NCBI RefSeq assembly: GCF_037042905.1
Contig: NC_087245.1
Span: forward strand, 12,154,001 to 12,218,000
DNA: 64,000 nt
Direction: 5' to 3'
Origin: Lytechinus pictus
Taxonomy: Eukaryota
The notes under the pieces are model-generated. The model was given only the letters and a program-made list of their open reading frames with translations, was not told the origin of the DNA and ran no database searches. Positions within the stretch are counted from its first letter, which is position 1. The number at the start of each line of letters is the position of its first letter. The translations under genes and the position numbers were made by a program. Shown piece after piece: positions 2,907 through 44,500 of the stretch.

Positions 2907-3230
2907 GAGAGATGGATCGCAAAATGGCGGGAATCATCAATGGCCATTTCAAGTCTGTTCGGAATGTAGTGGTGGAGCCAGCGGAAAAACAGCTTGCTAT
3001 CTATCGCTCTGTTCTAGAGAGCGACAAGTCCAAATTCAAAGGCATTGATTTTGACCTCCGTCAGATGGTCTTTGACGAGTATCGTGAGCACGAGGGCGAG
3101 CATCCACCCAAATACCACTTCATCAACGCTATGCAATCCATTTACTACATCGATGACGTTAACGATACCTTAAGATATCTCTATGCCTCCTTGGAGGAGG
3201 GCGGGGTTATGTTGATAACCACTCTCTCGG
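2907..3230 (+). CDS. Histamine N-methyltransferase-like (class I SAM methyltransferase), internal coding exon
   Basis: Polypyrimidine tract + cag acceptor ending at 2906, donor gtaagc at 3231. Translation (G)EMDRKM...NVVVEPA...KYHFINAMQSIYYIDDVNDTLRYLYASLEEGGVMLITTLS matches HNMT-family motifs (VVEP, hFI..Q.lYY, L..GG). Phase 1 at both ends. Confidence 0.85.
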
Positions 3231-3811
3231 GTAAGCAGTTTTTCAATAACCGATAAAGGTAAGCTCTATCATGATATCTAGTCATATGGAGGAGAAAACG
3301 TGAGGAGAGTTGGTAAATTTTATCGCATTAATGAAGAAACAACAACTTTTCTTTTGAAAATGGCATGTGTGTGAAAATGGCATGTGTGGTGTAGTTGGAT
3401 CATTCAAAAGATGCTTTTACTTTACTTTACTTTACTCCAAAGATGTTGTAGGATTAAGCCTGTTCATCGATCAAGGTAGAGATGTTTATTGCTATTATCA
3501 GACAAAATTATACAGGTGCTCTACTTGTGTTGGCAGGGAGGGGTGGCAGTGGTATCGTGGACAGCCAAAAAATCCATGAACACACAAAACACTTGAAAAT
3601 CTTTCTAAATCTTAGAAGACTTGAAACTACGGAGATTTAAAGGAAATAAGAGATTGAATTAAATGACAGGAAATGTGGTACACGATCGGATGGTACATCA
3701 CATGACTTCATATTACCAAATGATACATGAGATAACATTCCATTGAATTTCATTAAATGAAATATTGATATTAAATAAAACTGGATATTTTTTCCGTATT
3801 TCACGTTGCAG

Positions 3812-4173
3812 ATGCATGTGGTTTCCAGCTGGTGTGGAACCGCTTCCCCCAAGTACAGGACGTGGCCGGACCATACCCAGGCACCAACGATATCCGACAG
3901 AGCCTGTTGGATCTCAATATCAAGTTTGAAGAAAATCACCAGAGATTATACGGGGACATAACAAGCTGTTTCCAGGAAGGGTCAAAGGAAGGGGAACTCA
4001 TCGTCGATTTCTTTAGTCAAATCATCGATCTCCGTGGTACGTCGCCCGAGCTCTATCAGGAGGTTGTCGATTATATGGGTTCGGAGCAGTGCTCGGAGAA
4101 AAAGAAAGACGGGACAATTCTCATTAACAGCGACTGGGACGCGTTCGTGGTGTACAAACCACTCTCCATCTAA
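3812..4173 (+). CDS. Histamine N-methyltransferase-like, terminal coding exon
   Basis: Acceptor ttgcag ending at 3811, phase compatible with the previous exon (G|AT = Asp). DACGFQLVWNRFP...DITSCFQEGSKEGELIVDFFSQI...SEKKKDGTILINSDWDAFVVYKPLSI* resembles the HNMT C-terminus. AATAAA near 4173 and at 4201. Confidence 0.85.
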
Positions 4174-9987: not shown

Positions 9988-11950
9988 TTTACTTACTTAC
10001 TTGGATTTACTTGGATGTAGAGACATAAAGCTATAAAGCTTATTTGTCCCTCGTCACGTAGGGTTGTCTCTGGTTTGGTGAATATTTTAATGGATGGGAT
10101 TTCCAGTGCCTCTCGATTGCAGATTTAAATGCATTTACACTAGTAGCAGATACTGCTACTTCAGGCAAAGCATTCCAGTTATTAATGCTTCTAACTGTAA
10201 AAGCATATTGCCGTGTCTGTAATCTACATCTGTATTTCCTGAATTTCATACTATGACCTCTGGTCCTTTTATTATCATCAAGATGGAACAGGCTACTCAG
10301 ATCTATCCGATCAATACCTCTTGTGATTTTGAAGATTTGAATGAATTCTGCTCTTTGCCTTCTGTATGAAAGAGTAGGGAGTCCCAAAATTCTCAACCTT
10401 TCAGGGTAATCTAAATGACGGGAATGTTGGGAAGTAGTCTCGTCGCTCGTTGCTGTATCTTTTCTAGTTGATCTTCATCTTTTTTTAAGACTGGAGCCCA
10501 AGCAGGATTACAATATTCTAGGGTAGGACGTACAATAGCTTTGTAGAGTTTGAGCCAGCCCTTCTCATTTAGAGCCGTGAAGGATCTCTTAATTATGCCA
10601 AGCTTGGTATCGGCTCTTTTTGTAATATCAGCAACATGTTCACTGAAGGAGAGGGATTTGTCGAACACGACTCCTAAATCTCTCTCTCTATCTTCTGGTT
10701 TGACTTCACATATTCCCTCTTCGGTTGGCATCTGATATTGAAAGTTTTTATTCCTACAACCATAATGTACAACCTTGCATTTTGAGTTGTTGAACTTAAG
10801 TTGCCATGCTTTCGCCCATTCCCTCACGGCATTTACGTCATCTTGAAGATCATTTGCATCACTCTGTGAGTCCACTATTCTATACATCTTTGTGTCATCA
10901 GCAAATAACATATTGGACTTGACAGATTCAGGTAGATCATTTATGAAACATATGAATAAAGTGGGTCCGAGGACACTACCTTGCGGAATTCCGCTAGTAA
11001 CCGGAAGCGAAGTGGAAAGTTTTCCATTTACAGATACTTTCTGAGATCTACCAGATAGATAGGCTTCAATCCAGTTTAACAGTTGGCCACCAATACCGTA
11101 TGCTTTCAATTTGGAGATCAGACGCTGGTGGGGGACACTATCGAAAGCCTTTTGATAGTCTAAGTATATACAATCAATTGAGTGACCGTCATCGATGTCC
11201 CTGGTCCAATCCTCGAGTACTTCCAGCAACTGTGTCGTACAGGATCTGCCACTGCAGAATCCATGTTGGTTGTCACAGAGAAGATCCTCTCCCTCTAAAT
11301 GTTGCAAGAGAACTTTCCCGTACAATCTTTTCCATGACTTTACAAGTTATTGATGTTAGACTAACGGGTCTATAATTGGATGGATCACTCTTTTTTTGCT
11401 TTCTTGTACAGAGGAATTACAATAACTTGACTCCATGACTCAGGAACAGTACCCTCCTCCATCAGCTTCGTAAAGATTATCTTGAGTGGTGTACTTATCT
11501 CATTATATATTTCTCTTAATACTCTAGAGTTGATTCCATCTGGACCAGGAGACTTATTAATGTCCAGTTTGGACAGTATCTCTTCTATGTCTTGTTCCCT
11601 GAATTCAATCTTTGTCAGCTCTGTCCGAGTCTTCTTCTGAATATTTGGTATAGAAGTCAGATCTTCTTCAGTAAAAACACTACCGAAGAAGGAATTGAAG
11701 GTAGTTGTCTTCTCTTCGTCGGACCTGGCTAGGGAACCATCTTGATTTACTAGGTCAGGAAAAGTAGCTTTACACTTGGACTTGCTCTTGACATATTTCC
11801 AGAAACATTTAGCATTATCTTTCACCTCCTCTGCAATTTGGTTTTCGAAAGATGATTTTGCATTCCAATCTGCCTCAGACCTACTCTTCTGATATTTATT
11901 CTATGATTTACGTTTGAGTTTGATTATTTCCAAGTACCCCTCAAAATACT
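9988..11950 (-). mobile_element. 5'-truncated CR1-clade LINE (ORF2 reverse transcriptase, frameshifted)
   Basis: ORFs 11385-11825, 10411-11325 and 10040-10396 carry KSPGPDGI, NQHGF, YLDYQKAFDSVPH, GIPQGSVLGP, FADD, VRPTLEYC..AW.P and RTRGHS; short (AAGT)-type tail near 9990. Confidence 0.95.
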
Positions 11951-15228: not shown

Positions 15229-18200
15229 CAGTTTTGTAATCAAGGCTCAAACCTCCAAGGCCAAGGCCAAGGCTTTAATACCCAAGGCCAATGCTTCAAT
15301 ACCAAAGGCCAAGGCATGGAAACCCAAGGCCAAGGCCTGAAAACCTCAAGGCCAAGGCATTTCAAACTTACGATATACAGAACAATGAACTAACAATACT
15401 TAGGCGGCAGACATCACACATGGTAAAATGTATGTGAGCGAGGGGACTGAGCGAGAAAAAAAAATTAACCTTTGTACATTTAAAACAAAAATAATTTCAT
15501 GATAGTGACATATTAAAATAATGATATAGTTACCTGTGTACACATAATCCATAATTTTTCTATAGGCGATTTACATTGCAATAATTATTATTATCACGGT
15601 CATCTGATCCTGGCATTCTCAACGTATGTTTTCTCCACTCTCTGGGACAGGGGCAGCAGAAAATTATTATGGGGGGGGGGGGGTCAACGCCAAAAAGGCA
15701 CCCACTTTTCAAAATGAGTTTTTTTGTGCAAACAGATACATGCATTTTCAAAATGAGATTATGAACTGCGTGAAGTAATTGTGTGTTTTATAGAAATTAA
15801 GTTGAGCAAAGGCTTTCTAAAGTGATTTTTAATTATAAGATAGATATTTTGCTTTAGGTTTTACTTCTCGGCGAGAAAGCATAGCGAGCAAGCGGTTTTG
15901 AAAAAAAAAAAATTCTGAAGTTGTAAAACTTGATTTATGGTCAATTATGGGGCTAATCATTGTTGAAATTTCCTTGCGCGATGTTGCCAGCGCGAATCAC
16001 CAGCTCAAACTTCTTGACATGTCGTGTAATAAGACATGGAAATTATTTTATTCTGAGCTGGTTTTGTAATCATGAAAAAGATGTGTATCTAACTAAAAAA
16101 TAACTTTGCGCTCGCTAATTCTTTTTATATACTGACCAGTAAAGGAAGCAGTTGATTAAGCAGTTAATTACTGCATTTTAAATAAGATACATAACTCACC
16201 AATAAAAAATAATGCGAGCGCAAAGCGCGATCGAGCTCAAAAATTTGTGATATTCCAACCTGAAAACTGGACATTCTAAGCATTTTTTTGTGAACGGGAA
16301 GAGAACGAGTACAATAATTGATGCGAGTGCAGGAAGCGAGCCAAATATTTGTGATATTTCAACCATAAAGCAACATTCTATACATTTTTGTAACCATTAT
16401 AGCAGTACTGTACTAAACAATAATTGATTCAAGCACGATTCAAAATCTGTGATTTTCGAACCTAAAATGTATTATGTTTTATTATTAAAGAAGGTATTTC
16501 TTTTTTAAAAAGGGCATATTTCATTGGGAAAAAAAAAATCCTACAGGGATTTTTTTTTTTGGGGGGGGGGGGGGCAAGAGAGCACAAAGCGCAAGCTAAA
16601 ATTTTCAAATGCTTAAACTGAAAATTAGTCATTTTTAGGACTCTTGTCAGTTTTCATATTTTTTTCTGCTAACAACCACTTTTATTTAACAGTTAATTAA
16701 TCATTAATTATTAATACTTAATGATAATATTAATAATTATTAATTATTAAATTATTGTTTTTAATTATCATTTCTTGAAACCATATTGACACAAAACAAA
16801 TACGTTGTTAATTTCCTTGAAACTGTAGAAAAATGAGATTCAATGTTGAACGATATATGATTAAAAAGAAGTGAACATTTTTTCCCCTTTGTTTTGTCAA
16901 TCTGACCCAAAACAAATATAACATTTAGAAGAGAGATGGAGAGAGAAGAAGAAGTCCCACCACCAAGAATAAACTTAGACAATGGGGAAAGGGAAAGGAA
17001 AAGATGGAGTAAATGTGATATTATTTTTTAAACAATCTATTGCAAAATTAGCTTCTCTTATAGAAAGAGGGGGACAGGTTTTGTTCACTCGCTCGCTTCA
17101 ATCGCTTTCTTCTTTTTTTTTTTACAGAAATTTTGCTCTATATATGCCATGATTGGCCTCTCAAAGTTTCTGGCTCATCATGCCATTGAAATAACCCATT
17201 TGGATATGACAAAATTGGAGACTGTGTTTAAGTTTACCAAATCTTTTCAGAATATCATTAACACTTAAAACATTCTTGTTGGCCAAAGAAAATAATACAA
17301 GGAAAATCCTAATGGAATAGAAATCAACCTTGTTATCGTTCTTTAGAGTTAGCTATGTTTAAAGTATGAAAATTGTTGTCAAAATTGCAGTCAGATGTAA
17401 AAATTATTCTTGTCATCAAAGCACTATTATCTTGATCATGACCATTATTATTTGCTGTCATTATCATCATATGATTACAACACATTACCAATACATAATG
17501 CTATTTTTCATAACTGATTTATTCTTTGTTTGAATTTCTTGATAATGGTGACAATTACAATTGATGACACTGCTAGTACACTTACTACTGCTGCTGCTAC
17601 TGTTACTGGTGATTGGTAGTATTGACCATTAGTGTTATTAAATATATATATAAAAAACAATTGAAACATTTATAATTACTTATTTAAAACAAATGAAAGT
17701 ACAAAATACAAAATGCCTTGAAAAAGCCTTAAAATTTCAAGGCTCAAAATCCTCAAGGCCAAGGCCCTCTCAAGGCCAAGGCTTTGAAAAAGTAGCTAGG
17801 CATTAAGGCGCCTTATTAAAGGTCAAGTCCACCCCAGCAAAATGTTGATTTGAATAAATAGAGAAAAATCAAACTAGCATAACACTGAAAATTTAATCAA
17901 AATCGGATGTAAAATAAGAAAGTTATGGCATTTTAAAGTTTCACTTATTTTTCACAAAATAGTGATATGCACAACTCAGTGACATGCAAATGAGTCAGTC
18001 GATGATGTCCATCACTCACTATTTCTTTTGTTTTTTATTGTTTAAATTATACAATATTTCATTTTTTACAGATTTGACAATAGGGACCGACTTGACTGAA
18101 TCATATAGTATTAAACAATGCTAATTCCACATGTTTAGGGAGGAATTAATCACTGTTTCACTTGACAATGAGGAGAAAATTAGAATAATTAATATTTCAT

Positions 18201-18450
18201 ATAATAAAATATAAAAGAAATAGTGAGTGGATGACGTCATCAGTCTCCTCCTTTGCATACCAACCAGGATGTGCATATAACTGTTTTGTGAAACTTTAAA
18301 ATGTCATAACTTTCTTATTTTACATCCGATTTTGATGAAATTTTCAGTGTTATGCTTGTTGGATTTTTCTCATTTTATTCAAATCAACTTTTTGTTGGGG
18401 TGGACTTGTCCTTTAAGGCCAAGGCCGAGCATCAAGGCACTACGACGCTG
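15229..18450. mobile_element. 3.2-kb non-autonomous TIR element with (CAAGGC)n subterminal repeats, inserted in the right foldback arm
   Basis: Interrupts the arm homology at these points; degenerate ends cagttttgtaat / actacgacgctg; aaggcc arrays at 15241-15360, 17715-17810 and 18415-18440. Confidence 0.7.
17820..18412. mobile_element. Kolobok/T2-like MITE, TTAA TSD
   Basis: ttaa|aggtcaagtccacccc ... ggggtggacttgtcct|ttaa; long internal inverted symmetry; same family as 50773-51377. Confidence 0.9.
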
Positions 18451-21829: not shown

Positions 21830-22330
21830 AAAAAACGATAATCTAATATGAATTCAGAAGATATTTTTTTTCCTTTGAAATTTTGTATTGAATCACATTG
21901 TATAATATTCTTTGAAAAGGAATTCCATAATTTTGGACCAGTAAAAACAAATGCTTCTGTGCAAACGATGTTCTATTCAGAGGTAAATGAAAGGAACTCG
22001 TGCTTATGAATTGTATTATTGTTTACAAACATATCATTAAAAGGCAACGGTAATTGTTTATTGATAATCTTGTACATTAACTGTCCGAGTTGAAAAGAAT
22101 ATAAATCTTTAACCTTCAGGACTTTATTTCTCAAAAACAGAATATTTGTATATGTGCCCTGAATTCTGCATGACTTATAATACGAATCACTCTTTTTTGT
22201 AATATAAAAAGTCTATTAATTTGAGAATTCGCTGCGTTAACCCATGCAACAACTCCGTAATTCAAGTATGGTAAAATTAACATTGAATATAATGATAACA
22301 AAATATTTTCCTCAAACCTTAACTAATATT
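21830..22330 (-). mobile_element. Degraded 3' fragment of an L2/Crack-like LINE
   Basis: Minus-strand translation gives LPYLNYGVVAWVNA..INRLFILQKRVIRII and GPKLWNS. Confidence 0.7.
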
Positions 22331-22702
22331 TTGTATTATTCTTTCAGCTATTTTTACAACAATTCTTTTTTAAGGGATCCCCTTTAAAATGAATAAAAGT
22401 GGTTATCTATCTTTTGTCCTTAATACCTATATGCACTATTTGCCCCCCCCCCCCCCCCCGATTCAACGATTCTATAGCCACATAAAAATGTATGAGTGGG
22501 ACCAAAGGCCTGCTAATTTTGTTGATTCACACGCAACAAGTAACAGTAACACAAACTACTTGCAAATTAAATAGGCTAGTATAAAAACAAACTCATGTAA
22601 AATTTCACGATTGAGAGAACACCTACGAGAAACAGTGGATTGTAATTTACAAATATAGTACCGAATATCTGAAAAAAATATGATTGACTTGCTTTTTCGC
22701 AA

Positions 22703-24628
22703 GGTCTCACGCGCGTAAAACATTCCCCATAGACTTGTGTGTTAAAATGGCACTTAACAAAAATTCATAAAAAATAAATGTGAAATTAGAGGGTCGAATG
22801 TTTACTACCTTTGGATAGGATATATATCTGACATTCCATATCTGCCCAGAGAAGGGTATCGTAGCCAGCTCATTTTAAAAATAAATCGCCATTCATGAAG
22901 ATAACTATGATGGGATCAAATTCATCAACTGAAACAGTAAAATAGCCCCAATTCTTCCGCCAGTCAAAAAATAGTGCCAAATCATTGATATATTTTCCCA
23001 ATTTGGGCAAAGGAAGTTCAGTAGTTACCATTTCTAGAATCAGTGTAAGATTTTGAATCATATTCATACATTTTTGTCAATCAGCAATATCAAATTGAAA
23101 AATTTCGAATGGGTTGGGTCGAACGAATATCTTTAGCCCTCCTGATGTAAGTAGGCTCATGGCACCTATATTATATGACCTATGAATTTTATTTTTTTTA
23201 ATAGCTTCTTTGCTATTCTTTTATATCTGTACACTTACACTAGCACAAAGAAATGCATTGAAAATGCTTATTTTCTATGCAATGACCCATTTTAATGTGC
23301 TACTCATACATGTTATATTCACTATATGGATGTATACATATCCTTCCTGCATATAGCCCAACAGTGAATGCAATGACAATATATAGGCCCCTATTCTCCT
23401 TGTAATATAAAGGTGTATGTAAATTTGGTGTAGATATCAGGATACCAGAACTGCCCCAAACATAATTACCAGATATACATGAGATTGAATGAGGAAACAA
23501 TAAATGAATGATAACATATTATATTACTTTAGTACATTTGCATTTGAACTATTATATCAAAATCTTCCTAGGGCTATTGCCTATCAGATGTAAGAAGAAA
23601 GAGATAAACAAATAGATAGAAAGAGGAGAGAGAAAGAAAGATAATTTTATAGATGTCATGGCTTATAAAGAAGGGGGGGGGGGGGCTAGACTAAGATTGG
23701 ATCACACAGCCACCCCCCTCCCTCCTTAGTTGAGCACTATTAGATACCTTACCTTACTCTGTGCCTTTTTCTAAATACCTTCTTGAAGGTACCACTCTAG
23801 TTCTCTTCAGTAAAGTTCAGAAAGTTCTATCTCTAGCTCTCTACCCCATTCCAAAGAACAATTTTAACATGAGCAATTTGTATAGGTCTTTCTAACATTA
23901 AGTAGGTGATCATACACTAGCACAAACTAATGATGAATCAGAACATAAAGAGGCCTAGACTCTCATTGACCAGTCTACATGCATTCCTAGGCTTACATAC
24001 ACATACCTACTAACTTTACCTGATATAGCCTTGCTAAGCCATTAAATCCATTTTTTGCACCACTTGATGACTAAACATATTGATATCAGTTAGAAATTGT
24101 TTGCTTCTGAGGGTTTTTTGCAGGTATTCCATCCACTATAGGGAATTCGCCTGTATTACTTGTAGGTCTCACGCGCGTAAAACATTCCCCATAGACTTGT
24201 GTGTTAAAATGGCACTTAACAAAAATTCATAAAAAATAAATGTGAAATTAGGGGGTCGAATGTTTACTACCTTTGGATAGGATATATATCTGACATTCCA
24301 TATCTGCCCATAGAAGGGTATCGTAGCCAGCTCATTTTAAAAATAAATTGCCATTTATGAAGATAACTATGATGGGATCAAATTCATCAACTGAAACAGT
24401 AAAATAGCCCCAATTCTTCCGCCAGTCAAAAAATAGTGCCAAATCATTGATATATCTTCCCAATTTGGGCAAAGGAAGTTCAGTAGTTACCATTTCTAGA
24501 ATCAGTGTTAGATTTTGAATCATATTCATACATTTTTGTCAATCAGCAATATCAAATTGAAAAATTTCGAATGGGTTGGGTCGAACGAATATCTTTAGCC
24601 CTCCTGATGTAATTAGGCTCATGGCACC
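22703..24628. mobile_element. Non-autonomous DNA element with 464-bp long terminal direct repeats, short imperfect TIRs and 4-bp TSD (KolobokP-like)
   Basis: Direct repeats 22703-23166 and 24165-24628 (about 7 substitutions by eye). Each starts ggtctcacgcgc and ends gctcatggcacc. gcaa flanks both outer ends. No TG..CA ends, and no PBS or PPT seen. Confidence 0.75.
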
Positions 24629-25948
24629 GCAAGCACTACACGGACACCATTGTCAGATAGCCTGTGATTCAGACACCCTAAAAAAACGTAGCTTGCGATA
24701 CAGTCGCCGAAAAAAATCGTAGCCTGTACTCCAGTCGCTGAAAAAAAAATATGCGGGCGTAATCTCCGGAAAATACGGACATTTTCAGCGGGCAAAACGT
24801 TTTTTCCGTCCGGGCGGACAGAAACGCCTGAACGATATCAGGTTTTTTGGTCCGTCTTCGCATTTTCGGGCGTTTTCACTGCCCGGGCATAACAACCTGC
24901 TACACCGGCCACCCAAATTAATGTATTTTTTTGTTTTTGAATATCATGCCGATCCGATATCCGAACCGATTTCGATTTTAGGAGCAAAACTTCCGAACCG
25001 AACTCCGATCCCGTTATTGCTCTTACTTACAACCTATACTTTATGCCCAAGATCAAGGTAAGTCAAGGTAAATAAATAATGTTTCTGAAATGATATTGCA
25101 TGCCACCTGTGCATTCTAAAATTTGAGTCAATAAAAGCGTTATACAAAATTTAATCGATCAGGTCTATGTGAAAATCTGTACACATTTCGAAGCGGTCAA
25201 TCACTCGCTCTGCACATATACTACATAATGTTCATAAGTAATGATTATAGTCGTTACATTCAGCTTACACAAAGTCCATAGGCGGCCAGGGGCGAAACGG
25301 AAAATGGAAACGATAATCACCACAGGAGAAGGGGAAAAGAAGAAGAAATATGAGAGGGAAAGAACTGTGACTGAAACAAGAAAAAGGGTATGATTGGAAA
25401 ATTGATATATGAAAAAACTTTCAGGACATTAAAATTTTCGCTCGCGCATCGTGCTCGCCTTGCTTGTTGACTGAAATAATAATCTGCTCATGCCTCATGA
25501 GGATTACATGGGACTTGAAATATCCCGTTTTCACGTCTATATGCACAAACTTTTTTGCTCTATTGCTTGTGATGTTTAGTTAGATACGCATTTCATTCAT
25601 GAATATGATGATTGCTCTGAATGTTCAATTTTCAGGGCTATAAACACATGCAATATAAAAAAATAAGCTAGCGCTTCGCGCTCGAATTATGAATTTCGGC
25701 CTTATAATTATAGATCTAAGATGGCTAACTTACAACTCCTGTCTTAAGTTAGGACTATTATACCCCCTCGAAAAACCAACAACAAACATAAGCTTATAGC
25801 GGAAATTGTGGATGAAAATGTTTTCCATACCCGGCCCTATTGACGAAAGCTGGATCGGCCCCCTGAAATTCTGAAACCTAGATATATGTCGCTATTCAAG
25901 CTTAAAGGTTGTATTATACACCCCACTTCCCACATACAAAGGACTTAA

Positions 25949-26531
25949 AGGAGAATGAAACCCTTGAAACCAGCTGGATCCATATCAAAGAGAAAATCAA
26001 AGAAACATATTGTTGAAAGTTTGAGGAAGATTGAATGAATAATAAGAAAGTTATGAGCATTTGAATATTGAGATCACTAATGCCATGTAGATCCTCCCAT
26101 TGGCAATGCGACCAAGATATGTGATGTCACACACGTACAACTCCCTCATTACTTTAGTACTTATTTCACTTATATTCTCACTTTTATAGAGTCTATCACA
26201 AGGTGAGGTGTTCTCTTTATGAGAGGACAAGTACAAAGGTTTCACAACATTATATCATTGATGAATCGTTTGTCATATGATTAGAATGAGCAAAAAGAGA
26301 TGTTTTGGGGTATATTTTCAGCGTCCTAAAGGGGAGAGTTGTTCATCGGTGACATCATAGTTCTTGGTCGCATTGCCAATGTGCGGATCTCCATAGCATT
26401 AGTGATCTCGACATTCAAATGCTCATAACTATTCTATTGCTAGTCCTATTTTACTCAAACTTTTGTTGATCTTATTCTTTGATTTCTCTGCTTTCCCAAA
26501 AGCTAACTTGCTCCAAGAGTTTCATTCTCCT
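25949..26531. mobile_element. Kolobok/T2-like MITE, TTAA TSD
   Basis: ttaa|aggagaatgaaac ... gtttcattctcct|ttaa; extended inverted symmetry. Confidence 0.9.
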
Positions 26532-26893: not shown

Positions 26894-27881
26894 GTGGGGG
26901 GGGGGGGATATGGTACTGTACATGCCACCCCCCCCCCCCCCCCCATCTCCGAAAAGTGTGGGGGATATCATTACACCCGTGTTTGTGATGCTGTGTCAGA
27001 ACTGCTGACAAAATGCAGCCAGTCAAGGAATTTTCAAATCATATTTAAAGAAAAATTGGAACATTTCTTTTTGCTGTCCCCTGTAAAAGTGAGCAAAATG
27101 TCTGCTAATATTATACGACCATCAGAGGCAGCGTAAAGTAAAAGAATATTTCCTTTTGTAATGCGCCTGTCTGCAATTAGGCAATTAGTCGGGAATCTTT
27201 TTCTACAATCTGCAAGAAAATATGAAACAACATATTTTATCATTGCGGGATCAATGTCCATGGTCCATGGTCAGAGGGTCAGAGGGTCAGAGTGTTGGTA
27301 TTGGGGATCAGGGACGGATGTATCTAATCAGAATGGCTCCTGCTTGGACTCTTTCGAAAAGAAGAAAGAAACTAAAAAACACACACTTGCAGGATACTGT
27401 TATTGTAAAAATTACCACTTGTCGGGCCACTTGTTCACTGCAACCACCTTGCCTGTAGGTAATCTACATGGAGATCGATATGCAGCAGTATACAATACAC
27501 ATTTTTAAAAAGAAATCATTAAAATACCATCTTTGTTACCAAAAACATTAATTTTCATACAGTTGCAATTTATGTTTTATTAGTATTAAAATACCACCTT
27601 AGTTACCAAAAACATTAATTTCCATACAGTTGCAATTTATGTTTTATTAGTAACCCGGGGATCATTTTTGTATTCACCAGAGCGCTCAAAAACTGTTTTT
27701 GTGTAGGCCCTCTAGTGGTGCAAAGTAAAATTTCTAGAAAATTGTCATTTTTCAATCTATATTTTTTATTTAGAAAAAATAATTAAAAGAATTCAATTTT
27801 CTTATGAGCCAAGCTATATGAAGCATAGTTGTAATGGAAACTGACAGTGTCTAAAAAGCAAGCATTTGTCCCAAAGATTAA

Positions 27882-28430
27882 AGGGATGGTCCAGGCTGAA
27901 AATATTTATATCTTGATACATAGAGTAGAATTCACTGAGCAAAATGCAGAAAATGTCATCAAAATCGGATAACAAATAATAAAGTTATTGAAGTTTAAAG
28001 TTTAGCAATATTTTGTGAAAACAGTTGTCATGAATATTCATTAGGTGGGCTGATGATGTCACATCCCCACTTTCCGTTTTCTTATTTTTTTCACTATTTC
28101 ATACTTGTGTGAATAATATGTCTCTCTTATAAGTAAAGTAATAAGTTGCAGCAATAAATATCTAATGCACTAAATCAGTTGTCAATCCAATTTTTCTAGT
28201 TCTTGGAGGAAAAAATTTGAATAAATAATTTCATATAATAAAATACAAAAGAACAAGTGGGGATGTGACGTCATCAGCCCACCTAATGAATATTCATGAC
28301 GACTGTTTTCACAAAATCTTGCTTAACTTTAAAATTCAATCATCCGATTTTGATGAAATTTTCGGCATTTTTCTCAGTGAATTCTACTCTATTTATTGAG
28401 CCATAAATACTTTCAGCCCGGACCATCCCT
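27882..28430. mobile_element. Kolobok/T2-like MITE, TTAA TSD
   Basis: ttaa|agggatggtccaggctgaaa ... tttcagcccggaccatccct|ttaa. Confidence 0.9.
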
Positions 28431-28695
28431 TTAAGAACAGGAGAAAATGAGCCAAACATGGTCAACCTTATTTCCCCACACAGGGAGTAGTAATGTCAGA
28501 GAACAAGGTTATATCATATAATGACATCGTTCATTGAAAGAGTGGAAAGTACTTACATCTTTCAAATCCTTTCTTTCAAACAGGACAACAAATTGAGTCT
28601 AGCTGGGATTCGTCTCGCACAGGCCTGTACGGTGAACATAAGGCAAAGGGTATAAAGGCACTTCTGTAACCTGTGAAATACTGTCAAGTACTCAC

Positions 28696-28786: not shown

Positions 28787-30693
28787 GATAGGTTTTTGTG
28801 TGTGTGTGGGGGGGGGGGGTGTATTGATTCCGTTAACTGTATTGGATTCCGTTAACTGTTGTGATATTTTGACATCAATTACACCAGATCACGCAGGTGT
28901 ACTGCTTCAATTACGTAACTTTGTAAATGCTCCAGACTTTGGAAATTCTTATTGGAAATTCAATAACAGTTTGTGCGTAGATCAAGAATTTGTTAGGATG
29001 TTTAAAGATAAAGTAGTTGAATTAAAAGCAGAATGGATTCCAAAAATAAAGGACAAATTACTGTTATTGGGATTTTTTGAAAATGAAAATGAGACAGTTT
29101 ATTAATACCTATACAAAAGAAAAGGCAAAGGTCAGAAAAAATGAAATTAAAAAAAATAGAGAAAGAAATAGAAGAATTAGAAAATAAACTTTTGTCTCAG
29201 CCATTGAGAAATATAATTGATGACATTGATGAGAAAAAATCTAATTTGAACAAGTTATATGATTATAGTCGACAAGGTTTAAAAATTCGGTCAAGGGCAG
29301 TTTGGTTTGAGGAAGGGGAACAAAAAACACAATATTTTGAACAGTTATTAAAGTCTAATAAACGGAAAAGTGTGATAAAAGAATTATATGATGACGATGA
29401 TCACATCATTAAGGATAGAAAGGAAATATTGAAGAAGATTGGAACGTATTATGAAAACTTATACTCATTGAGTGAAGCTATTGTTAATGAAAATTCTTTG
29501 TTCCTTAAGGATATTCCTCAATTAAGTAACGAAAGTTGTAATATATGTGAAGGTAGAATAAGTATTCATGAATAGAATGTTTAAATGTTTTAAAAGAAAT
29601 GAAATATAATAAATCCCCTGGTAACGATGGTTTTACGGTAGAGTTTTATTATACTTTTTGGAATTTATTAGGGGGACTTTTGGTAGATGTTTTAAATGAA
29701 ACATATGAAAGGGGAAAACTGACAACCTCACAAAAGCAAGGTGTGATAACGTTATTGGAAAAAAAAGATAAAGATCCATTATATGTCCAAAATTTTAGAC
29801 CAATTACACTTTTAAATGTGGATTACAAAATATTGTCAATAGGTTTTAGCAAAAAGATTAAAAGGTATACTAAATGAGATAATTCACAATGATCAAGTTG
29901 GCTATGTAAAATATAGAAACATTGGGGATGGTGTAAGATTAATAGATGATATGTTATATCAATCTAATTTCAAAAATATTGGATATTTAATCACTGTTGA
30001 TTTTTAAAAGGCCTTTGATTTTGTTTCACATGATTTTCTTTTTAAGATCCTTAAACTATTTGGATTTGGGCACTCATTCTGTTCGTGGGTCCGTGTTTTA
30101 TACTCGGATATTACTAGTAGTGTTATGAATGGGGGGTTTTCTTCCGGTTATTTTAATATAAAGCGAGGGGTAAGACAGGGGGATCCCCTCTCCCCATATT
30201 TGTTTCTGCTCTGTATTGAAATACTTGCTCTGGCAATAAGGAAAGACAGACAGGTTGAAGGAATTCAATTTCAGAACCGTGAAATAAAGCAAATTTTGTA
30301 TGCTGATGATATATCATTGTTTGTTAAAAATACACACTCTTTAGATCGTCTTCAATACCTTTTGGAAGAATTCGAGAAAATTAGTGGTCTAAAAATAAAC
30401 AAAGGAAAAACTAATATTTTGTGGATGGGTCGGGATAATGACAGACCTCAGACACAGTTGTTTGGGAATTTTGTTCAGCATATTAAAATTTTAGGTGTTT
30501 ACTTTTCTCTTAATGTTATAATAAAAGAAGACATGAATTACAAAGAAATACTTAGTAAAATAAAAAGACTGTTGGGATGGTGGAAACAAAGGGATCTCAC
30601 ACTTATGGGGAAAATTCACTTGTTAAAAACATATGCATTGTCAAGGCTAAACTTTGTTTCGTCACTAATAGTGGTTCCTCAGTGGTTGTATGC

Positions 30694-30985
30694 CAGGGGC
30701 GGATCCAGCTTTTTATAAAGGGGGGGGGGGTTGGGGTGGTATGCGAGGGAGCGTAGCGACCGAGTCCAAGCGAGCGAGGGGGGAGGGTGTGGGAGGGGGG
30801 TGTCCCCCCTCCCACAGTAGGGAAAATTTTTGAAAATCTGTGTGTGAAAATTGCGTTTTCTTGCATAAAATAGAATAAAATAAAATTACAAGTTTTAAAA
30901 AAAAGATAAGATTTAAAAAAATGGTCCCCGGATTTTTTTTGGGGGGGTTGCAACCCCCCCAACCCCCCCTCTAGATCCGCTTCTG
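30694..30985. mobile_element. 292-bp CAG-terminal MITE inserted in Tx1 ORF2
   Basis: TIR caggggcggatccag / ctagatccgcttctg; tatgc duplicated (30689-30693, 30986-30990); removing it restores WLYAEVEKITFEFLWSGKDRIKR. Confidence 0.9.
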
Positions 30986-32265
30986 TATGCTGAGGTTGAA
31001 AAGATCACATTTGAATTTTTATGGTCCGGAAAAGATCGGATAAAGAGAATTATAATGTACCAGGATTACTCACAAGGGGGTTTAAAAATGATGAATTTTA
31101 AGTTGTTTGTAAAGTCTTAACGTTTAATGTGGCTTAAACGATTACTTTACGGAGAACGAGATGCAGGATGGAAGTTGTATTTTGATTTTTGTTTTCGATC
31201 AGTTGGGGGGAGATTTCTGTTTCTATGTGACTTTGACACTTCAAAATTAAATATAAAAATGCCCCCATTTTATTCAGAAATGATGAAGGCTTGGCAAGAC
31301 TTAAGGAGATTTCGTTATTCTGAAGAGGAGGTTAACCCTATTATATTCAATAATCAACATATTTGTATAAAAGGTAAAACGATTTTTGACAATGATCTTT
31401 TTAATAAAGGAATATTTAGCGTTGATCAAATCTTTGATAATGGCCACTTGAAGCCTGTGACTTTTTTTCAAAATCTCGGTATGACCGCAAATCAACTTCT
31501 CAAAATAATAGATATTGTGCACGTTATACCAGCAAGCTGGAAAAATTTTAATAGTTTAATAAAGTTTAAAAAAATTGATTTGGTAGACTTTGGGATAAGT
31601 ATGAATATTGGAAAATAGGAAACAGCTTTTGAAGTAATTAAATAAAAAAAAAATTATAACTTGTTTATTACTAAGCTACAAGAGCTATACAAGTTAACAC
31701 TTAAGGATGGTCACAGTGATTTTGATTTTACTGATGTAGAAATATGTAAATTATTTGAATATATCAGGAGCACAACTCTTATAAGAAAACAAAGGGAATT
31801 TCAGTTTATGCTTTTACATGGAGCAATATATACAAAAGAACATTTGATGAGATTTGGTTTTGTGGGAGATAATTATTGTTCGTTTGGTTGTACAAAAACT
31901 GAATCGTACTTTCATATACTCATGGATTGCATAAAAGTTCAACCTCTTTGGCAATTTTGTATTGATAATTTTTGTTTAGCTGAATTAAGAACTTTGAATT
32001 GGAGGGAAATATTCTTAGGATTACCTGGAAATTCTTGTAGAATTAAATGTGTCAATTCTGTTATTCTTTTTATTAAATATGCAATTTTTATTTCCAGAGC
32101 TGAAGGCCGGGTACCGTCATTTATTAAAATACACAAATATATAATGGGTTGTATAGAAGAAGAAAGACGCCTGGCAACGAAGTCAGGCAAGTTAAGTTTA
32201 CATTTACAGAAATGGGATGTACTGAAGGTGAAAAGGGATTTGAATGTGAACAGATGGGATGTGTC

Positions 32266-32511
32266 CACTAGCGTACCTACGGGGGGGGGGGGCAGGGGGG
32301 CACTCTGCCCCCCCTGACGAGTCACAACCCATGCAAAAACGTATCTTTGCCCCCCCCTGACTGGCTTGAAAAACCTTTTTTTGCCCCCCCTGACGAGCTT
32401 TAAGACCTTTAATGCCCCCCTGACGAGCTTGAAGACCTTTTTTTTTTTTTTTTTTTTTTTTGGCTTGTCAATTTTTTTTCTGGAACGAAATCCTTTATTT
32501 GTGATCGAAGA

Positions 32512-33661: not shown

Positions 33662-35944
33662 AAGATAACTATTTCCAATGAATTCAATTCCTATTTTACA
33701 AATGTCGCAGCTACGTTGGTAGATAAACTTCCATCTTGCAAAGACATTTTCAGTGCAGACAGTGAAAACATTCGTAAATTTTATGAAAAAAAGGGTAATA
33801 AGCCAAGATAAATTTGAATTATTACCTGTTAGTGATCAATTCATTTTTAATGAGTTGCGTAAATTAAATGTATCAAAAAGCACTGGGTTAGATTTGATAC
33901 CTGCTAAATTTCTAAAAGAAGGAGCAAAGAGTTTGTACAAACCATTAAATTTCTTAATAAATCTATATATCTTTACTAGCACTTTCCCAGAGGATATGAA
34001 AATTGCAAAAGTAACTCCTATTCATAAGAAGAAAGATAAAACTGCTATTGAAAACTATAGACCTATCAGTGTTTTAAGCATAGTATCCAAAATTCTAGAA
34101 AAGGCGGTATGTGTTCAGATCGAAAAATATTTTAAAGAAAATGATATGATTTACGAATATCAGTCAGGTTTTCGACATGACTATTCGACTGAGACATGCC
34201 TTATTCACTTGACTGATTATCTGAGAACTAATATGTCTAAGGGACAATTCGTTGGGATGGTACTCCTAGATCTTCAAAAAGCATTTGATACAGTTAATCA
34301 CGGCATCTTATTGAAAAAATTACAAATAATGGGTTTTAACCAGGCTACTGTAGCATGGTTCAAATCCTACTTGTCGAATCGACATCAAGTAGTGGCTATT
34401 CGCGATATTTGTTCCAAAATTATGCCTATAACGTGTGGAGTTCCACAGGGAAGTATTTTAGGCCCAATCCTATTTTCAACTTATATCAATGACATGTCTA
34501 TTTGTTTAAAAGCTGACTGTAAATTATTATTGTATGCAGATGATAGCGTACTACTTTGTTCAAATGCCAACCCAAAATTTGTTGAGGAAAAACTTAGCGA
34601 ACAGCTGTCTACATGTGTCGATTGGATGACTGATAATAGATTATCGTTACACTTAGGCAAAACCGAAAGCATTCTGTTTTGTTCTAAAAGTAATCATAAA
34701 ACTTCATTTGAATTTGAAGTATCATACAATAATAAGATAATTCATAGGAAAGAATCTGTAAAGTATTTAGGCATTGAGTTGACTAGCTCCCTTTCATTTT
34801 CATCTTTAGTAGAATCAATCGTAAAAAGGGCGAATGCCCGTTTGAAATTTTTGTACAGGTATCAAAGTTGTATGGATCAAAAAGCAAGGCGTATTCTCTG
34901 TTTTGCTCTTATTCAGAGTTTATTTGACTATGCCAACCCTGCTTGGTTTAGTGGCATAAGCGAACTCGATAAAAAGAAGTTGAAAATTATACAGAATAAA
35001 ATGGTTAGATTCATTAGCTGTTCTGGTCCCAGAACCCATGTTGGCTACACCGAACTCTCTGGAGCAGGTTTTCTTGAAGTCAACAAAAGATCAAAACAGC
35101 TTATTTTGCACCACGTGCATAAAATCTATCACAATAGATCGAATCATTACATTGGATCAAACTTTAATCTAGTTACCGAAATACATAACTATAATACAAG
35201 AAACAGCCATTTCAATTTTTGCTTACCAGAAAGGGTAGGTAGTATTGGTAACTCATTTTATTACAATGCTATAAAACATTGGAATTCCCTTCCCAATGAT
35301 ATAAAGGAAATAGGAAACTTTTTGCATTTTAAGAGGAAATTGAAAGAATATCTTTCACTTGAGAGTCAAAAAGAAGATGCAAATGATATGTTGTACGGTT
35401 GATTTAGCCTGAATACTGACCTAGTTCTTTTCTCTTCTCTACTAGGTATTATTATGTATTTTACATAGTTTGATTGAAGCTTCGATATGTCCTTTCTTCT
35501 ATTCTTTCTATTTCTTTTATTTCTTCCTATTCTCCTCTTCTTGTTGTTATTGTCGTCACGTTTATGCTGTTGTTGTTCTCCTTATTTATTTCCCTTCGTT
35601 ATCAGTTTCTTCCGTCTCCTTCTACTCCTCGTCCCCTCTCTTCTTCTGTTCCTCCTCTTCCTTCTCCTTCTTTTCTTCTTCTTCTTCGTTATATTCTTGT
35701 ATATATCTTATTTATTGTCTATATATCTTATTTATTGGTAATAGTAAATTCTGATTTTTTTCTTCATTTTTAATATGTAAATAGTATAATTTTAACATTT
35801 TATTATCTTATTTCTGTATATTGAGGACCCCACTGGAAATAAGCTTTCGAGCTTTCGTGGGTCATCCTGTGCAAGCCTGTTGTTTTAATGCTACTGTATA
35901 TATGTTATGGTGACTTGCCAAATAAAATCAATCAATCAATCAAT
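33662..35944 (+). mobile_element. 5'-truncated L2/Crack/Daphne-like LINE with (TCAA)n tail
   Basis: Interrupts host sequence ttgttat|gtcacggg; pyrimidine-rich 3' UTR with a stem-loop-like segment; ends aataaaa(tcaa)4. Confidence 0.9.
33753..35402 (+). CDS. LINE ORF2 reverse transcriptase domain, uninterrupted 549 aa
   Basis: KSTGLDLIP, NYRPISVLS, YQSGFR, LDLQKAFDTVNH, GVPQGSILGP, YADD, KYLG, HNYNTR, WNSLP; one frameshift near 33797 joins upstream NEFNSYFTNV. Confidence 0.9.
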   Translation: MQTVKTFVNFMKKRVISQDKFELLPVSDQFIFNELRKLNVSKSTGLDLIPAKFLKEGAKSLYKPLNFLINLYIFTSTFPEDMKIAKVTPIHKKKDKTAIENYRPISVLSIVSKILEKAVCVQIEKYFKENDMIYEYQSGFRHDYSTETCLIHLTDYLRTNMSKGQFVGMVLLDLQKAFDTVNHGILLKKLQIMGFNQATVAWFKSYLSNRHQVVAIRDICSKIMPITCGVPQGSILGPILFSTYINDMSICLKADCKLLLYADDSVLLCSNANPKFVEEKLSEQLSTCVDWMTDNRLSLHLGKTESILFCSKSNHKTSFEFEVSYNNKIIHRKESVKYLGIELTSSLSFSSLVESIVKRANARLKFLYRYQSCMDQKARRILCFALIQSLFDYANPAWFSGISELDKKKLKIIQNKMVRFISCSGPRTHVGYTELSGAGFLEVNKRSKQLILHHVHKIYHNRSNHYIGSNFNLVTEIHNYNTRNSHFNFCLPERVGSIGNSFYYNAIKHWNSLPNDIKEIGNFLHFKRKLKEYLSLESQKEDANDMLYG

Positions 35945-39839: not shown

Positions 39840-41570
39840 TTATTATTTTATTTATTGATATATTCATATTCCACAAATCCTCAAAGTAAATTCAAAATAA
39901 ATAATTTTTGCAATGAAAAGATGCATCAACTGCACAACATATGCAGGGTTGAAACGTACCAATGAAATGAAAAAAGTGGAGGGGCCTACTGAAAAGCAAA
40001 GCTTGTAAGATATAGACCCCCTATCAAAATTTTATAAAAGGGTATCAAAAGGGTAATATGATATCAGTAGAGTAAAATAATCAGCAAAATTATATAAATT
40101 TATATAGATATAATTACTGTAACACGAATGTATATACACTATATACAAAATTATTTATTGACTTTAAAATAATCAACACTACCGTGGATAAGTATGAAGT
40201 TCAAAAAATATTTTATCGAATCAGTAAAAATTCAGAAGAAAATTTTTGATGAGTAATTTAAATCGGTTCAGATTAGCTGCCTCTTTTATTACTCTGTCCA
40301 GAGAATTCCAAAGTTTTGGTCCTGGGATAAATACAGTTTTGCTAGCAAATACTGTTCTACTTTTAGGTAAGTGATAGTTATTTAAATGTTAAATGAATGC
40401 AACGTATAGTTTCTCATAATTTTTTTTGTAGAACATTAGGTACACTATTTCTATCTACCTGATACATAAATTGGAATAGTTGTAAGCGGTAAACGTCACT
40501 GACGTTAAGGATACCTTTCTGACGAAACAATTCATCCATACGAACTCTAATAGACATATTGCATATTATTCTCAGTACTTTTTTTCTGAAGTAGCAAGAC
40601 TTTGTTGAGTCTCGATTGAGAGGCTTTTCTCCATGCCAGAATCCCATAATTAAGATATGGTAGAATTATTGCACAATACAACATGGATAGTGCCTGTGCT
40701 GGAAGAACGTTTTTAAGCTTACTCCAATATTTCTTGCCACAGTTTTGCAAATATGGTTGATATGAGCATTCCACGAATTTTGTTGTCAATAGTAAGAACT
40801 AAAATTTTGTTGTTTGCACTTCTTTGATTTCAGTATTATCTAAAAGTATTTAATGCGGCAGATGTTTCAATGGGACTAAAAATCATATAATTAGTTTTTA
40901 GCAGATTCAATGACAGTTTGTTGGCTTTAATCCAGTTTGTTATTTTTTTAAATTCTGCATTCACAGTGCTCACAAGTGAATGTGGATCACGATATGTGTA
41001 TAAATATTGGCATCATCAGCAAAGATAATAAATGATAGAACATTAGATGATTTTTTCATATTATTAACATAAAGTACAAATAGCAAAGGGCCAAAAATAC
41101 TACCTTGTAGAATTCCACAGGCAACTGGCCTTGTTGGAGATTCTGATTCATTTACGGTAACAAACTGAATTCTATCAGTAAGATAACTCCTAAACCATTG
41201 TAAAGCTGTACCTCTGATACCGTAATTTGATAACTCACATAATAGTAATCCATGATATATTGTATCAAACGATTTTGAGAAGTCGAGGAACAACCCTACG
41301 GTATGATCAGAATTGTCAAAAGAAGTAGATATTTTATTTATTAATGTCAATATTGCATGAGTTGTATTATGCTTTTCTCTAAATCCGAACTGATTATCAC
41401 ATATAATACTATATTTCTTAAGTAAAGCAACTGCCCTTTTATAAATTATCCTTTCAAGTATTTTTGAGAACGAAGTTAACAAAGATATTGGGCGGTAATT
41501 ACTAGTAATTAATTGATCTCCCTTTTTGAAAATGGGTATAAATTTAGCTATTTTCATCTTCTTTGGGACC
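39840..41570 (-). mobile_element. 5'-truncated, degraded L2/Crack-like LINE
   Basis: ORFs 40970-41557, 40547-40789 and 40414-40647: NYRPISLL, NQFGFR, FLDFSKSFDT, GILQGSIFGP, FADD, LPYLNYGILAW. Confidence 0.9.
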
Positions 41571-44500
41571 TGGCGAAAGAAGATGAAAATAGCTAAAGTT
41601 ATGGTGGATCATGTTGGTTACAGGTACATGTTGAAAATTTAAGAAAAAAATGCCTCAGAATATTGTGTGATCTCAGGATTGTTTATTATCAGTTTTTACC
41701 AAAGATAAGTTCTACCTCCGCAAAGTGACAACTAATCTACCCACCTTATTAATACCATCTATCACCGTGTGACCCTCTCTTTACCCAGTTTATTTCACCC
41801 ATGTTCAGTCGCTTTTTTCTCTATTTACTTTGAATATTTATCCCCTTTTTCCCTGTTACATATCCCGCGCCACTCATCTTTAGGTCGCCAAAATTGTGTC
41901 AGTTCCCTTTCATTGCTGCTGGAATAGGGATTTGGACTTCTACTGTGCCTTTCTTCGGCTTATCATCAATAAGATTTTGACTAAATACATAAGAAAAGAG
42001 CTATGTACAAAAGACATTTATTTGATTGTTTGTCAATGATGTCTAAATTATTATTGCCATGATATTGACTGTACATCCGTCTTTAGACTGTATGACAGAG
42101 AAAAGGAGGGGTACTCTGTATCGGAAAAGGTACCAGTGATTTACTTGTCAACAATTTGAAGAAAATTGTAAAGCAACCATGATGATCACAAGGTAAGAAA
42201 ATACTTCTTGAATATGAGAGATTTGATTGATTATTTCCTAATTTCATGTATTGGATTTTTACTTTTGCAGTGGGGGTTAACAGGTACACAATGTTATACC
42301 CGATCGTTAAATGAAAGTCCACTCAATGTCAAGTTGGTTTTATTAGTAAATATGAGATGAAAATCAAGAATTAGAGAAAATCGTCAAAAGAATAATAGAG
42401 CTATAATTTGTTATGTTTTCTAATTTTGTGATTTCGCATGTATCTCCTCCGTACCCCCTTTTATTGATGATGGTTTAATGGGGTTTACAGTCTGCAGTGT
42501 TGTGAACTCAGAAAGTATATAAATGCCTCAAAAAAGTTTTGAGGACTAAACCATATAACGATTCAAATACTTAAGAACGATATATGACTAAATCGATACT
42601 ATATTTAAGAAAAAACATTGTAAACTAAAGGATAAACTTAGAACAAATTAATGAAGAAAGCTAACCATTAAAGTACATTATTTTTCATTAAGTTTTTTTT
42701 TTATAAAACAGGTTCATGCAATAAATATGTATAATATCAAAGGAAAATTCCCAATAATTTCTTCAAAGGCTGCTATAGTCCTATGGTGAATTTTCTTCAA
42801 TTTTTAATTACCCTTTTCCCCTTGTATTGATTAGTGATATAAAATCGATAAATACGGTGGCACAATAAGCCAAAAATGTTGAGGGGGCAAACATGGCGCA
42901 CTAAAAATTTTTTTATCTGAATTAGTAGTTAACACTTAATGTATACAAGTATAATTTATTATTTGTAATTATTTTTCGATTTTTTTTTTCAGTAGATTTA
43001 ACTTGTCTTTTAGTCTACTTGATTTATTTGGGTTCAATATGCATGTACGAAAATTCACGTATTGCTAGCTTGCTTTGATTAAGTAAATCTAATTCCAATT
43101 AGGCAAAGATAATAATTACCTATAAAATCATGTTAAATGTGCTAATATTTGTTCAATTAACACCTTATTTAGATAATGCCTGAACAATTCATTAAGAGCA
43201 AGTAAATGTTAAAATTGTTAAATAACTGTCATATCTATTTGTATTTGAAATTGTTTTGGATTAGGGTGTGCAAAATATCTATTCTTTTGTTGAATCAAAG
43301 AAAGAGCAACATTAAATAGTCACTCATCAGACAATTTCAGATTTTTCTTTTAGGTTTTCGGAAAATGTTAACATTATTCCACTGTTTTATTTGTTAGGAT
43401 GAACCGGTCGCGTATAAATATAAATGTCATATCATGTACAGGTAAGTGACAGTGCACAAAGTCTAAGACTTACATGGATAAAAGATGTCTAAGGTGAAAA
43501 TGATGCCACTGAAAGTGGGACGATGGGGGAGCGGAATTTCGAACCACGGAAGTTCAGTGCCCCCCCAAAAAAAAAAAAAAAATTTTCACTTAATTGAATT
43601 AAGTTTTTGTAACTTAATTTACTCGAGTAAAATGGATGCAAAGAAAATAAGTAAATCTTACTTAAAAGTGCCAAACTTATAAATACTTTTAAAATTAAGG
43701 CAATTTTTTGCCTCAATTTTGTTAAGTAATTTCAAACAATCTTTTTTTTTACAGTGCGTATCGAGCAAAAATTTCGACCTTTTTTCATTACAAAATCAAA
43801 TTTTGTGATAGATTATGACATAACATTCAGAAAACAATATATTTCACCCTTCTCTCTTTTTTGAGGGGGGGGGGGCAAGCGCCATCAAGTCCCCCCCCCC
43901 CCATCTGTTCGCCAATGGATAAATAAAGATCTTAGCTAAAGATAACATTTCTATCTCAAAAATACTTATTTTATGTCTGTCATAATTATCACTGTATAAT
44001 TATTTGATAGATTAAAACTAAGTATTGGATTCCTCAATGAATAAGACACTGTATTATAAATTAATATTTCAGTTGTAACCTTCCATGCAAAGTCTGGAAA
44101 AATAATAAGTAGAGTTAACAAAATAGAACACTTTTAGCAGTATGCTTACTGCTGATTAAATGAGTGAACATTCAAGTATAGTTTATTTGATATAAGTCCT
44201 CCAAAACTACAAGACAGTTCATGCCCGTGAGGAATGAGGCAGAGAGCAAACCACCGAATTTACACAAAAGGCTACGGAGGATTGAGTTTACATGGACAAT
44301 TTTTATGCACTTTACGTTCATTTTGTAATTTACAAAATGCAAAATAGGGTTTTCAAATCTAGAGGGATCTGCCTCCCTACCCCCTTGCTGAAATAACAAC
44401 ACGTACCTAAATGACGAAGAAAGAGTCTCCCCTTGTGGCTTCTTCCTTTTCCAATAATTTGATATAAAATGTGGTTTCTTTATGTAACGAAATATCCTAA

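Follow-up and report, generated by a model that had tools for sequence, protein, structure and literature searches.

The window analysed here, 64,000 nucleotides of Lytechinus pictus DNA (NC_087245.1, positions 12,154,001 to 12,218,000), contains at 22703..24628 a 1,926-bp unit built like an LTR element, and this raises the question of what kind of element it is and how its two terminal repeats came to be so alike. The original prediction, made from the letters alone, described a probable young, non-autonomous DNA transposon of the KolobokP type. Repeat comparison within the window resolves the unit into two terminal direct repeats (LTDRs) around an interior (INT), i.e., LTDR-INT-LTDR of 464, 998, and 464 bp, with the following features.

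21901..22702, no strand assigned: left part of the host repeat, 85% identical to paralog L185 over the whole 802-bp query and extending at least to 21901
22699..22702, forward strand: left target-site duplication (TSD), GCAA; present once only in each of the 2 paralogs fetched
22703..23166, forward strand: left LTDR, 464 bp, GG...CC; 9 differences by eye from the published N1_LyPi LTDR, 90% identical to the LTDRs of the autonomous copy L111
22703..22718, forward strand: left-end inverted repeat of the left LTDR, imperfect, matching the right end at 8 of 12 and 11 of 16 positions
23151..23166, reverse strand: right-end inverted repeat of the left LTDR, from the comparison of ends
23167..24164, forward strand: INT, 998 bp, non-coding, starting TATA and ending TGTA; each half of the published N1_LyPi interior matches it by eye
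23167..23545, forward strand: 5' part of INT, homologous to the 5' non-coding interior of autonomous KolobokP-1 (local score 69; maximum of 200 shuffles, 22)
24038..24136, forward strand: 3' part of INT, homologous to the 3' end of the autonomous interior (local score 31; maximum of 200 shuffles, 13)
24165..24628, forward strand: right LTDR, 464 bp, which the tree pairs with the left LTDR (support 97/75, short of the starred threshold)
24629..24632, forward strand: right TSD, GCAA, single in the paralogs
24629..24912, no strand assigned: right part of the host repeat, 93% identical to paralogs L185 and L186, where it is contiguous with the left part

The two LTDRs, expected to carry about seven substitutions, differ at exactly seven positions (22790, 22849, 22887, 22894, 22994, 23047, and 23151). 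Their imperfect inverted ends, GGTCTCACGCGC against the reverse complement of GGTGCCATGAGC, match at 8 of 12 positions as first described, and at 11 of 16 when extended. Copies with other flanks set the ends as GG...CC; the one-nucleotide ambiguity originally claimed for both boundaries holds on the left, where an A precedes both repeats, and falls away on the right. Both inner tetramers that had been likened to target sites are present, TATA on the left and TGTA on the right. The latter is a private change of TATA in the window copy (1 of 24 monomer interiors), since other interiors end TATA or, in the sister family N2, TAAA or TACA. The interior is non-coding, as predicted: the longest stop-free frame in the copy has 72 codons, tblastn with the transposase or the nuclease gave no match, and no structured RNA was found in Rfam up to E 0.1.

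The unit lies in an older dispersed repeat, of which the last 233 bp before the site have 22 other matches in the genome. GCAA flanks it at 22699-22702 and 24629-24632, and the predicted empty site was found in both paralogs of the host repeat that were fetched (2 of the 22 other matches), which are without all 1,926 bp plus one GCAA. Because these paralogs cross the site with a single GCAA, the 4-bp duplication and the exact ends of the element are proven. The TSD and the empty site together show that the window copy was transposed as a whole, through a staggered cut of 4 bp. They also decide against two independent MITE insertions, or a local duplication, flanking 1 kb of host DNA. Target-like inner tetramers and the existence of solo LTDRs with their own TSDs had given that reading some appeal; one TSD brackets the whole unit, however, the empty site lacks all of it, and the same interior recurs with the same junctions at dozens of loci. 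We rejected this candidate on these grounds and regard it as vanishingly improbable.

KolobokP was defined by Kojima and Bao (2022; PMC9587614, cited throughout from the parts consulted) by an LTDR-INT-LTDR layout with LTDRs near 450 or 660 bp, short inverted ends of the LTDR's own that are perfect or imperfect and read 5'-RR...YY-3', and TSDs of 3-5 bp without strong target preference. Solo LTDRs, (LTDR-INT)n-LTDR multimers, and INT-INT junctions short of 3-4 bp complete the description, and INT-INT junctions with one TATA are reported there alongside the solos and multimers. The window copy and its relatives show the same layout, RR...YY ends (GG...CC), a 4-bp TSD, solos, multimers, and INT-INT junctions. 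Since KolobokP is defined by just these features and KolobokP-N1_LyPi is listed (Table S1 row 227; Data S1/S2), the family was already in print and the window copy itself is ordinary. By eye, its left and right LTDRs differ from the published N1_LyPi LTDR at 9 and 8 positions, respectively, in 464 bp; the INT sequence, the TATA start, the 4-bp TSD, and the 12-bp end repeat are the same. It is nearly certain that the window copy is a young monomer of the non-autonomous KolobokP-N1_LyPi, inserted into an older dispersed repeat and derived by deletion from an autonomous KolobokP; the original prediction of a KolobokP-type element is borne out. The whole explanation, i.e., this identity plus the copying mechanism proposed below, is in our judgment very probably the best one.

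One difference from the published family is length: the N1_LyPi consensus has 3,486 bp, with 3 interior copies listed, against 1,926 bp for the window copy (PMC9587614). The published interior reads as an INT with an inserted element of ~580 bp, one TATA, and a second INT. At L065 (C3:68.971-68.978 Mb), an INT with a 583-bp TTAA-flanked insertion is likewise followed by a second INT, twice in succession. The published 3.5-kb consensus is thus an INT-INT dimer plus an insertion, in the layout seen at L065, and the basic N1 unit is the 1.93-kb monomer; no earlier statement of this was found in the open literature, i.e., outside subscription journals and Repbase Reports. Two further published families have the same architecture (PMC9587614). 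KolobokP-N2_LyPi (1,904 bp) is 92% identical to the window copy in its LTDR and 87% in its interior, and its interiors end TAAA or TACA, unlike the TATA of N1. KolobokP-1_LyPi (4,984 bp, autonomous) has LTDRs 90% identical to those of the window copy but encodes proteins, and its interior is only ~65% like that of the window copy, at the ends.

A longer copy with the same repeats and a Kolobok DDE transposase had been anticipated, and one exists. L111 (C7:10,448,293-10,453,249; 4,957 bp; TSD AGAA) has LTDRs 90% identical to those of the window copy and encodes a PF20700 transposase (E 2e-44, frameshifted) and, downstream on the opposite strand, a PF05551 nuclease (E 5e-11); the start and end of its interior match the published KolobokP-1 interior by eye. 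Both ends of the window INT are homologous to the L111 interior ends (67% over 163 bp at the 5' end), while ~290 bp of the 3' middle of INT (interior positions 560-850) have no detectable homology in the autonomous interior (score 16 against a shuffle mean of 13). Because both INT ends are homologous to autonomous interior ends, the window copy is a deletion derivative and INT is not captured cargo; the suggestion that the pair of repeats forms a composite transposon carrying cargo is therefore abandoned. No second KolobokP-1 copy was seen among the 40 scored of 115 candidates, the next best being members of an autonomous family on contig C8, at 88-89%.

L111 also bears on whether the unit could be a TRIM or other non-coding LTR retroelement. 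In TRIMs and LTR retrotransposons, as in KolobokP-N1, each insertion has sister repeats, and solos and tandem arrays occur (PMC9587614 in part); sister terminal repeats, solos, arrays with shared repeats, and a 4-bp TSD would all suit an LTR identity. The ends of the window copy, however, are GG...CC rather than TG...CA, and by eye its interior starts TATATTAT, without a TGG primer site, and ends TATTACTTGTA, without a purine tract before the right repeat, which bears out the absences first noted. KolobokP-N1 further differs from TRIMs and LTR elements in having no reverse transcriptase (RT) and in repeats that carry their own inverted ends and are excisable. The proteins of the coding relative that shares these repeats are a DDE transposase and a His-Me nuclease, with no RT among them. 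The RT genes in or beside copies (L113, L116) are APE-RT LINE insertions, and an LTR element would not be expected to lose exactly one repeat from between two interiors. The autonomous relative L111 refutes this identity, which we consider extremely improbable.

A genome search for the His-Me nuclease family gave 106 matches, most of them in arrays of the C8 type. Intact autonomous KolobokP occurs as tandem arrays at C8:21.257-21.300 Mb (L117, L172), and arrays of the same family lie on unplaced contigs C109, C157, C174, C200, C214, C219, C273, and C361. The C8 family has a 4.46-kb unit with a 696-codon transposase frame and the His-Me nuclease, and its outer TSD on C8 is CGCA. Its transposase is 79-86% identical to that of L111 over the L111 pieces, and its LTDRs are 80% identical to those of the window copy with different ends; it is not among the four LyPi rows of Table S1 (PMC9587614). 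The intact relative L117 shows by eye the D, D, CxxH, and E motifs and both zinc fingers described in the consulted parts of PMC9587614. A second autonomous array, at C5:35.92-35.97 Mb (L118, L173-L175), has a 4.35-kb unit with a 723-codon transposase frame and a His-Me nuclease; this transposase is 49% identical to the C8 one, and the C5 repeats have no detectable match to the window LTDR and different end repeats. Further His-Me nuclease loci without a match to the window repeat (L081-L088, L097, L098, L112, L119, and L120) probably represent other KolobokP families. The intact autonomous arrays provide, in the same genome, an enzyme source for a test of mechanism.

Exact 24-base LTDR left ends number 1,143 in the genome (G000, 812 Mb; reversed control, 0) and right ends followed by TATA number 541, both patterns also catching sister families. 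Copies occur as monomers, solos, and arrays. As anticipated, the pairing of repeats recurs with the window interior, which returns at 92-98% identity in the best-scoring places (40 of 1,275 candidates scored), and other copies have a 4-bp TSD. An exact one was found in 33 of 41 closed units (24 of 31 in a first set and 9 of 10 further ones; absent in 8) and in 9 of 14 solos. The 40 hand-listed TSDs comprise 30 different words, none of them TTAA; a pattern that ends in TATA was used to select 7 of the 14 solos, which biases the TSD composition of solos. Arrays with shared repeats have one outer TSD each on C7 (ATCG), C2 (TCAT), and C17 (ATAA), and the outer ends of the old C9 array do not match. 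Young copies and contigs C1-C9 are over-represented in the sample of units. L148 (an array end, not a solo) was left out of the counts and L111 (autonomous) out of the allele counts; L073 and L074, with a truncated right LTDR, were left out of the allele counts and kept in the TSD count.

Several features of the family lie outside this tally. Repeats have diverged more slowly than interiors (mean 4.3% vs 6.3%). L056, L144, L151, L155, and L163 are mixed copies, which points to exchange between the N1 and N2 families: in an N1 copy both repeats have the right end of the N2 type, and elsewhere interior ends of the N2 type occur with repeat ends of the N1 type. An N2 array at C2:67.626-67.653 Mb (L113-L115, L170) has a 6.7-kb unit and the TSD TCGA; a LINE lies in its interior, with one open frame for APE-RT (1,266 codons) and another for a zinc knuckle (392 codons), and was amplified along with the array.

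How the two LTDRs of one copy are related was read from shared alleles. In 30 units, 46 of 55 doubleton alleles fell within one insertion, where 1.7% would be expected (binomial p 2e-72); of the remainder, one was left-left, two were right-right, and six were left-right in different copies. With 38 units, 61 of 71 two-copy alleles lay within one insertion (~1% expected), and so did 17 of the 20 doubletons that touch the eight added units. Left and right LTDRs do not separate into clades in the tree, where many insertions form a pair of their own; its bootstrap values had yet to stabilise. The two LTDRs of one insertion thus descend from one recent LTDR. Had the composite simply been cut and pasted, separate left and right lineages would be expected; these were not seen, and a plain cut-and-paste model in which left and right LTDRs keep lineages of their own is excluded by the sister repeats. 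No earlier statement of sister LTDRs within KolobokP insertions was found in the open literature, subscription journals and Repbase Reports aside.

The same pattern makes insertions datable as for LTR elements. The LTDRs of the window copy share one private allele (LTDR position 143), and their seven left-right differences date the copy to ~0.75% divergence per repeat. Left-right differences are far fewer than the distance to the nearest other sampled LTDR in L182 (1 vs 10-11), L181 (2 vs 8), L071 (1 vs 7-8), L157 (0 vs 6), and L151 (0 vs 5); the older copies L057, L150, and L159 show no such excess of left-right likeness.

The repeats could have become sisters at birth or afterwards. We think it probable that new copies are born from one LTDR template: the source of new monomers and arrays would contain LTDRs of one lineage only. 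It could be a circle of LTDR and INT that is duplicated or amplified before an end-end junction is cut, or it could be a segment released from a homogenised array. In favour of birth, the 14 extracted LTDRs of the C7 array, both outer ones included, have no substitution among them and lie 3-4 from the nearest other copy; the five interiors tested from it match in every aligned column and sit on a branch of length 0.010. Both trees make sisters of the insertions L003 and L009, which lie on different contigs, have INT and LTDR variants in common, and inherited no left-right difference.

Alternatively, the whole composite moves by ordinary cut-and-paste and its LTDRs become alike only later, where they stand, through gene conversion or unequal crossing-over. 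The His-Me nuclease might initiate such exchange, as Kojima and Bao propose for multimers (PMC9587614). Arrays are indeed common, and for most units with private shared alleles the sample contains no sister insertion, a fact that conversion explains as easily. The first 58 bp contain 1 of 40 shared alleles but 16 of 89 single-LTDR alleles (a post hoc comparison); such scarcity is what conversion would predict, but selection on donor ends predicts the same. All left-right differences pooled crowd near the ends (KS p 0.0004), but this crowding is gone when only private alleles are used (KS p 0.57; shared vs single, p 0.31). A bias of left-right differences to the left 5' and right 3' sides was not seen (p 0.28). 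Against conversion, shared alleles are found along most of the LTDR, and unshared alleles fall between them about as often as expected. The outer LTDRs of the old C9 array, moreover, are unconverted, whereas in young arrays outer and inner LTDRs are identical. First, inner, and last LTDRs of the C9 array kept 9, 6, and 6 private changes, one of them common to first and last, and the outer and inner LTDRs of the C2b dimer kept separate private changes; in-place conversion therefore looks rare there. We accordingly consider later conversion unlikely, though it is the strongest competitor to birth from a single template.

How a single template could be copied is suggested by the junctions within arrays. 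INT-INT junctions number 107, with a pattern for the 4-nt form only, and are spread over at least 11 placed loci plus unplaced contigs; many of these counts are amplified copies of one event. Among those listed, most keep TATA and at least five keep TAAA (four on C17, one on C19). N1 junctions are uninformative on which flank was lost because both flanks are TATA; the N2 LTDR lies between TAAA and TATA, so that the lost flank is visible. The reciprocal form, LTDR-TAAA-LTDR, was found five times, four on C17 and one on unplaced contig C136, and since the arrays that carry these junctions on C17 and C136 have different LTDR variants, there were at least two events. On C17, the joined LTDRs are two different variants, as if the interior between neighbours had been deleted. 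No LTDR-LTDR junction with a TATA spacer was found, and two others have spacers of 7 and 8 nt. The INT-INT junction of an autonomous array lost 4 bases, and an LTDR-LTDR junction there has an 8-base spacer between identical repeats; the 7-nt junction is old. Arrays thus lose LTDRs together with 4 flanking bases, from either side, and head-to-tail LTDR-4nt-LTDR junctions exist. LTDR-LTDR junctions are mentioned neither in the main text of PMC9587614 (figures aside) nor in its supplementary file 2, and no later study of KolobokP LTDR junctions or sister repeats was found in the parts of the open literature consulted, which exclude subscription journals and Repbase Reports.

Two sets of loci depart from these simple forms. 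Extra bases at L123/L145, L148, L153, L130, and L176, which separate either the end of an interior from a repeat (4-8 nt) or two repeats from each other (7-8 nt), look like repair footprints. The C17 array (C17:19.231-19.286 Mb; L136-L142) is an N2 array of higher-order structure with two LTDR variants and both kinds of INT-INT junction, one of which has received, at a TA inside it, a 770-bp element with inverted ends.

Some of these junctions look like products of bacterial copy-out transposition. In IS30, an end that attacks beside another end gives minicircles and dimers in which the two ends face each other across a spacer as long as the TSD (PMC9333248, in the parts consulted). The flank-derived spacer of (IS30)2 dimers and other IS30/IS3-type junctions may have its counterpart in the TAAA of LTDR-TAAA-LTDR, and IS30 dimers can arise either from both copies within a compound transposon or from one side of a replication fork to the other. 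By analogy, a KolobokP DDE transposase would act in trans on LTDR ends, and one end would attack 4 nt outside another, a copy-out step of the IS30/IS3 type that we consider fairly probable. LTDR-TAAA-LTDR junctions in arrays would then be trapped copies of a right end-4 nt-left end intermediate. The likeness has limits: IS30 is bacterial, its repeat itself encodes the transposase, and its route was shown by experiment, whereas that of KolobokP is inferred solely from genomic junctions; copy-out leaves the IS30 donor unaltered, whereas KolobokP INT-INT junctions imply loss at the donor.

The fuller model, in which KolobokP rebuilds both LTDRs from one template per round through a transposase-made end-to-end junction, with a circular or sister-chromatid intermediate and no reverse transcription, is a tentative one that we rate a little below even likelihood. 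If true, KolobokP would be a eukaryotic DDE DNA transposon whose repeats are identical at birth like LTRs. PMC9587614 infers such an intermediate from excision footprints and leaves the matter open, its Discussion leaving open both the use of a circular intermediate and how the composite structure is kept; according to the consulted part of a 2026 review, the nuclease model awaits confirmation (PMC13565253). Sister repeats and junctions make this question directly testable, the exact junctions to search for in circular DNA being named here.

Both kinds of junction might instead be passive, made by slippage or microhomology repair between TA-rich tetramers or, on the unplaced contig, by assembly error. 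TAAA and TATA offer 2-3 bases of microhomology (TA in common), arrays recombine often, two junctions have odd spacers of 7-8 nt, and one of the two 4-nt events lies on unplaced C136. Such an origin fits poorly with INT-INT junctions at so many placed loci, with a second, autonomous family having them although its tetramers TATA and TGTA differ, with the INT end-to-start joint also being read in a separate sequencing run (X2), and with the C17 junction being present four times. We consider a passive origin improbable, somewhat more so than later conversion, and prefer the transposase-made junction as the source of these forms.

Relatives of the repeat and interior, mostly 90-95% alike, occur in runs X1, X2, X5, and X6; three of these runs, from organism A, contain them in abundance, and the fourth, from organism B, also has them. 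Public sequencing runs, compared with the locus for an empty site in other individuals, share at best no more than 13% of the words of the flank; when 4 of 18 runs were aligned to the left LTDR, the flank before it, and the interior, no junction at 22702 could be read, most loose ends not being displayed. The surroundings of the element look intergenic, with many LINE fragments and small inverted-repeat elements. RT fragments of LINEs were recognised by eye at 10040-11900, 29093-32317, 33723-35402, and 40970-41608 of the window, and small elements with long inverted arms lie at 17816-18416, 25994-26485, 27878-28434, and 50769-52029. Two open frames on the forward strand, at 2903-3256 and 3775-4173, give from their translations the impression of exons of a methyltransferase-like gene, and a 45-bp minisatellite occupies 59225-59764.
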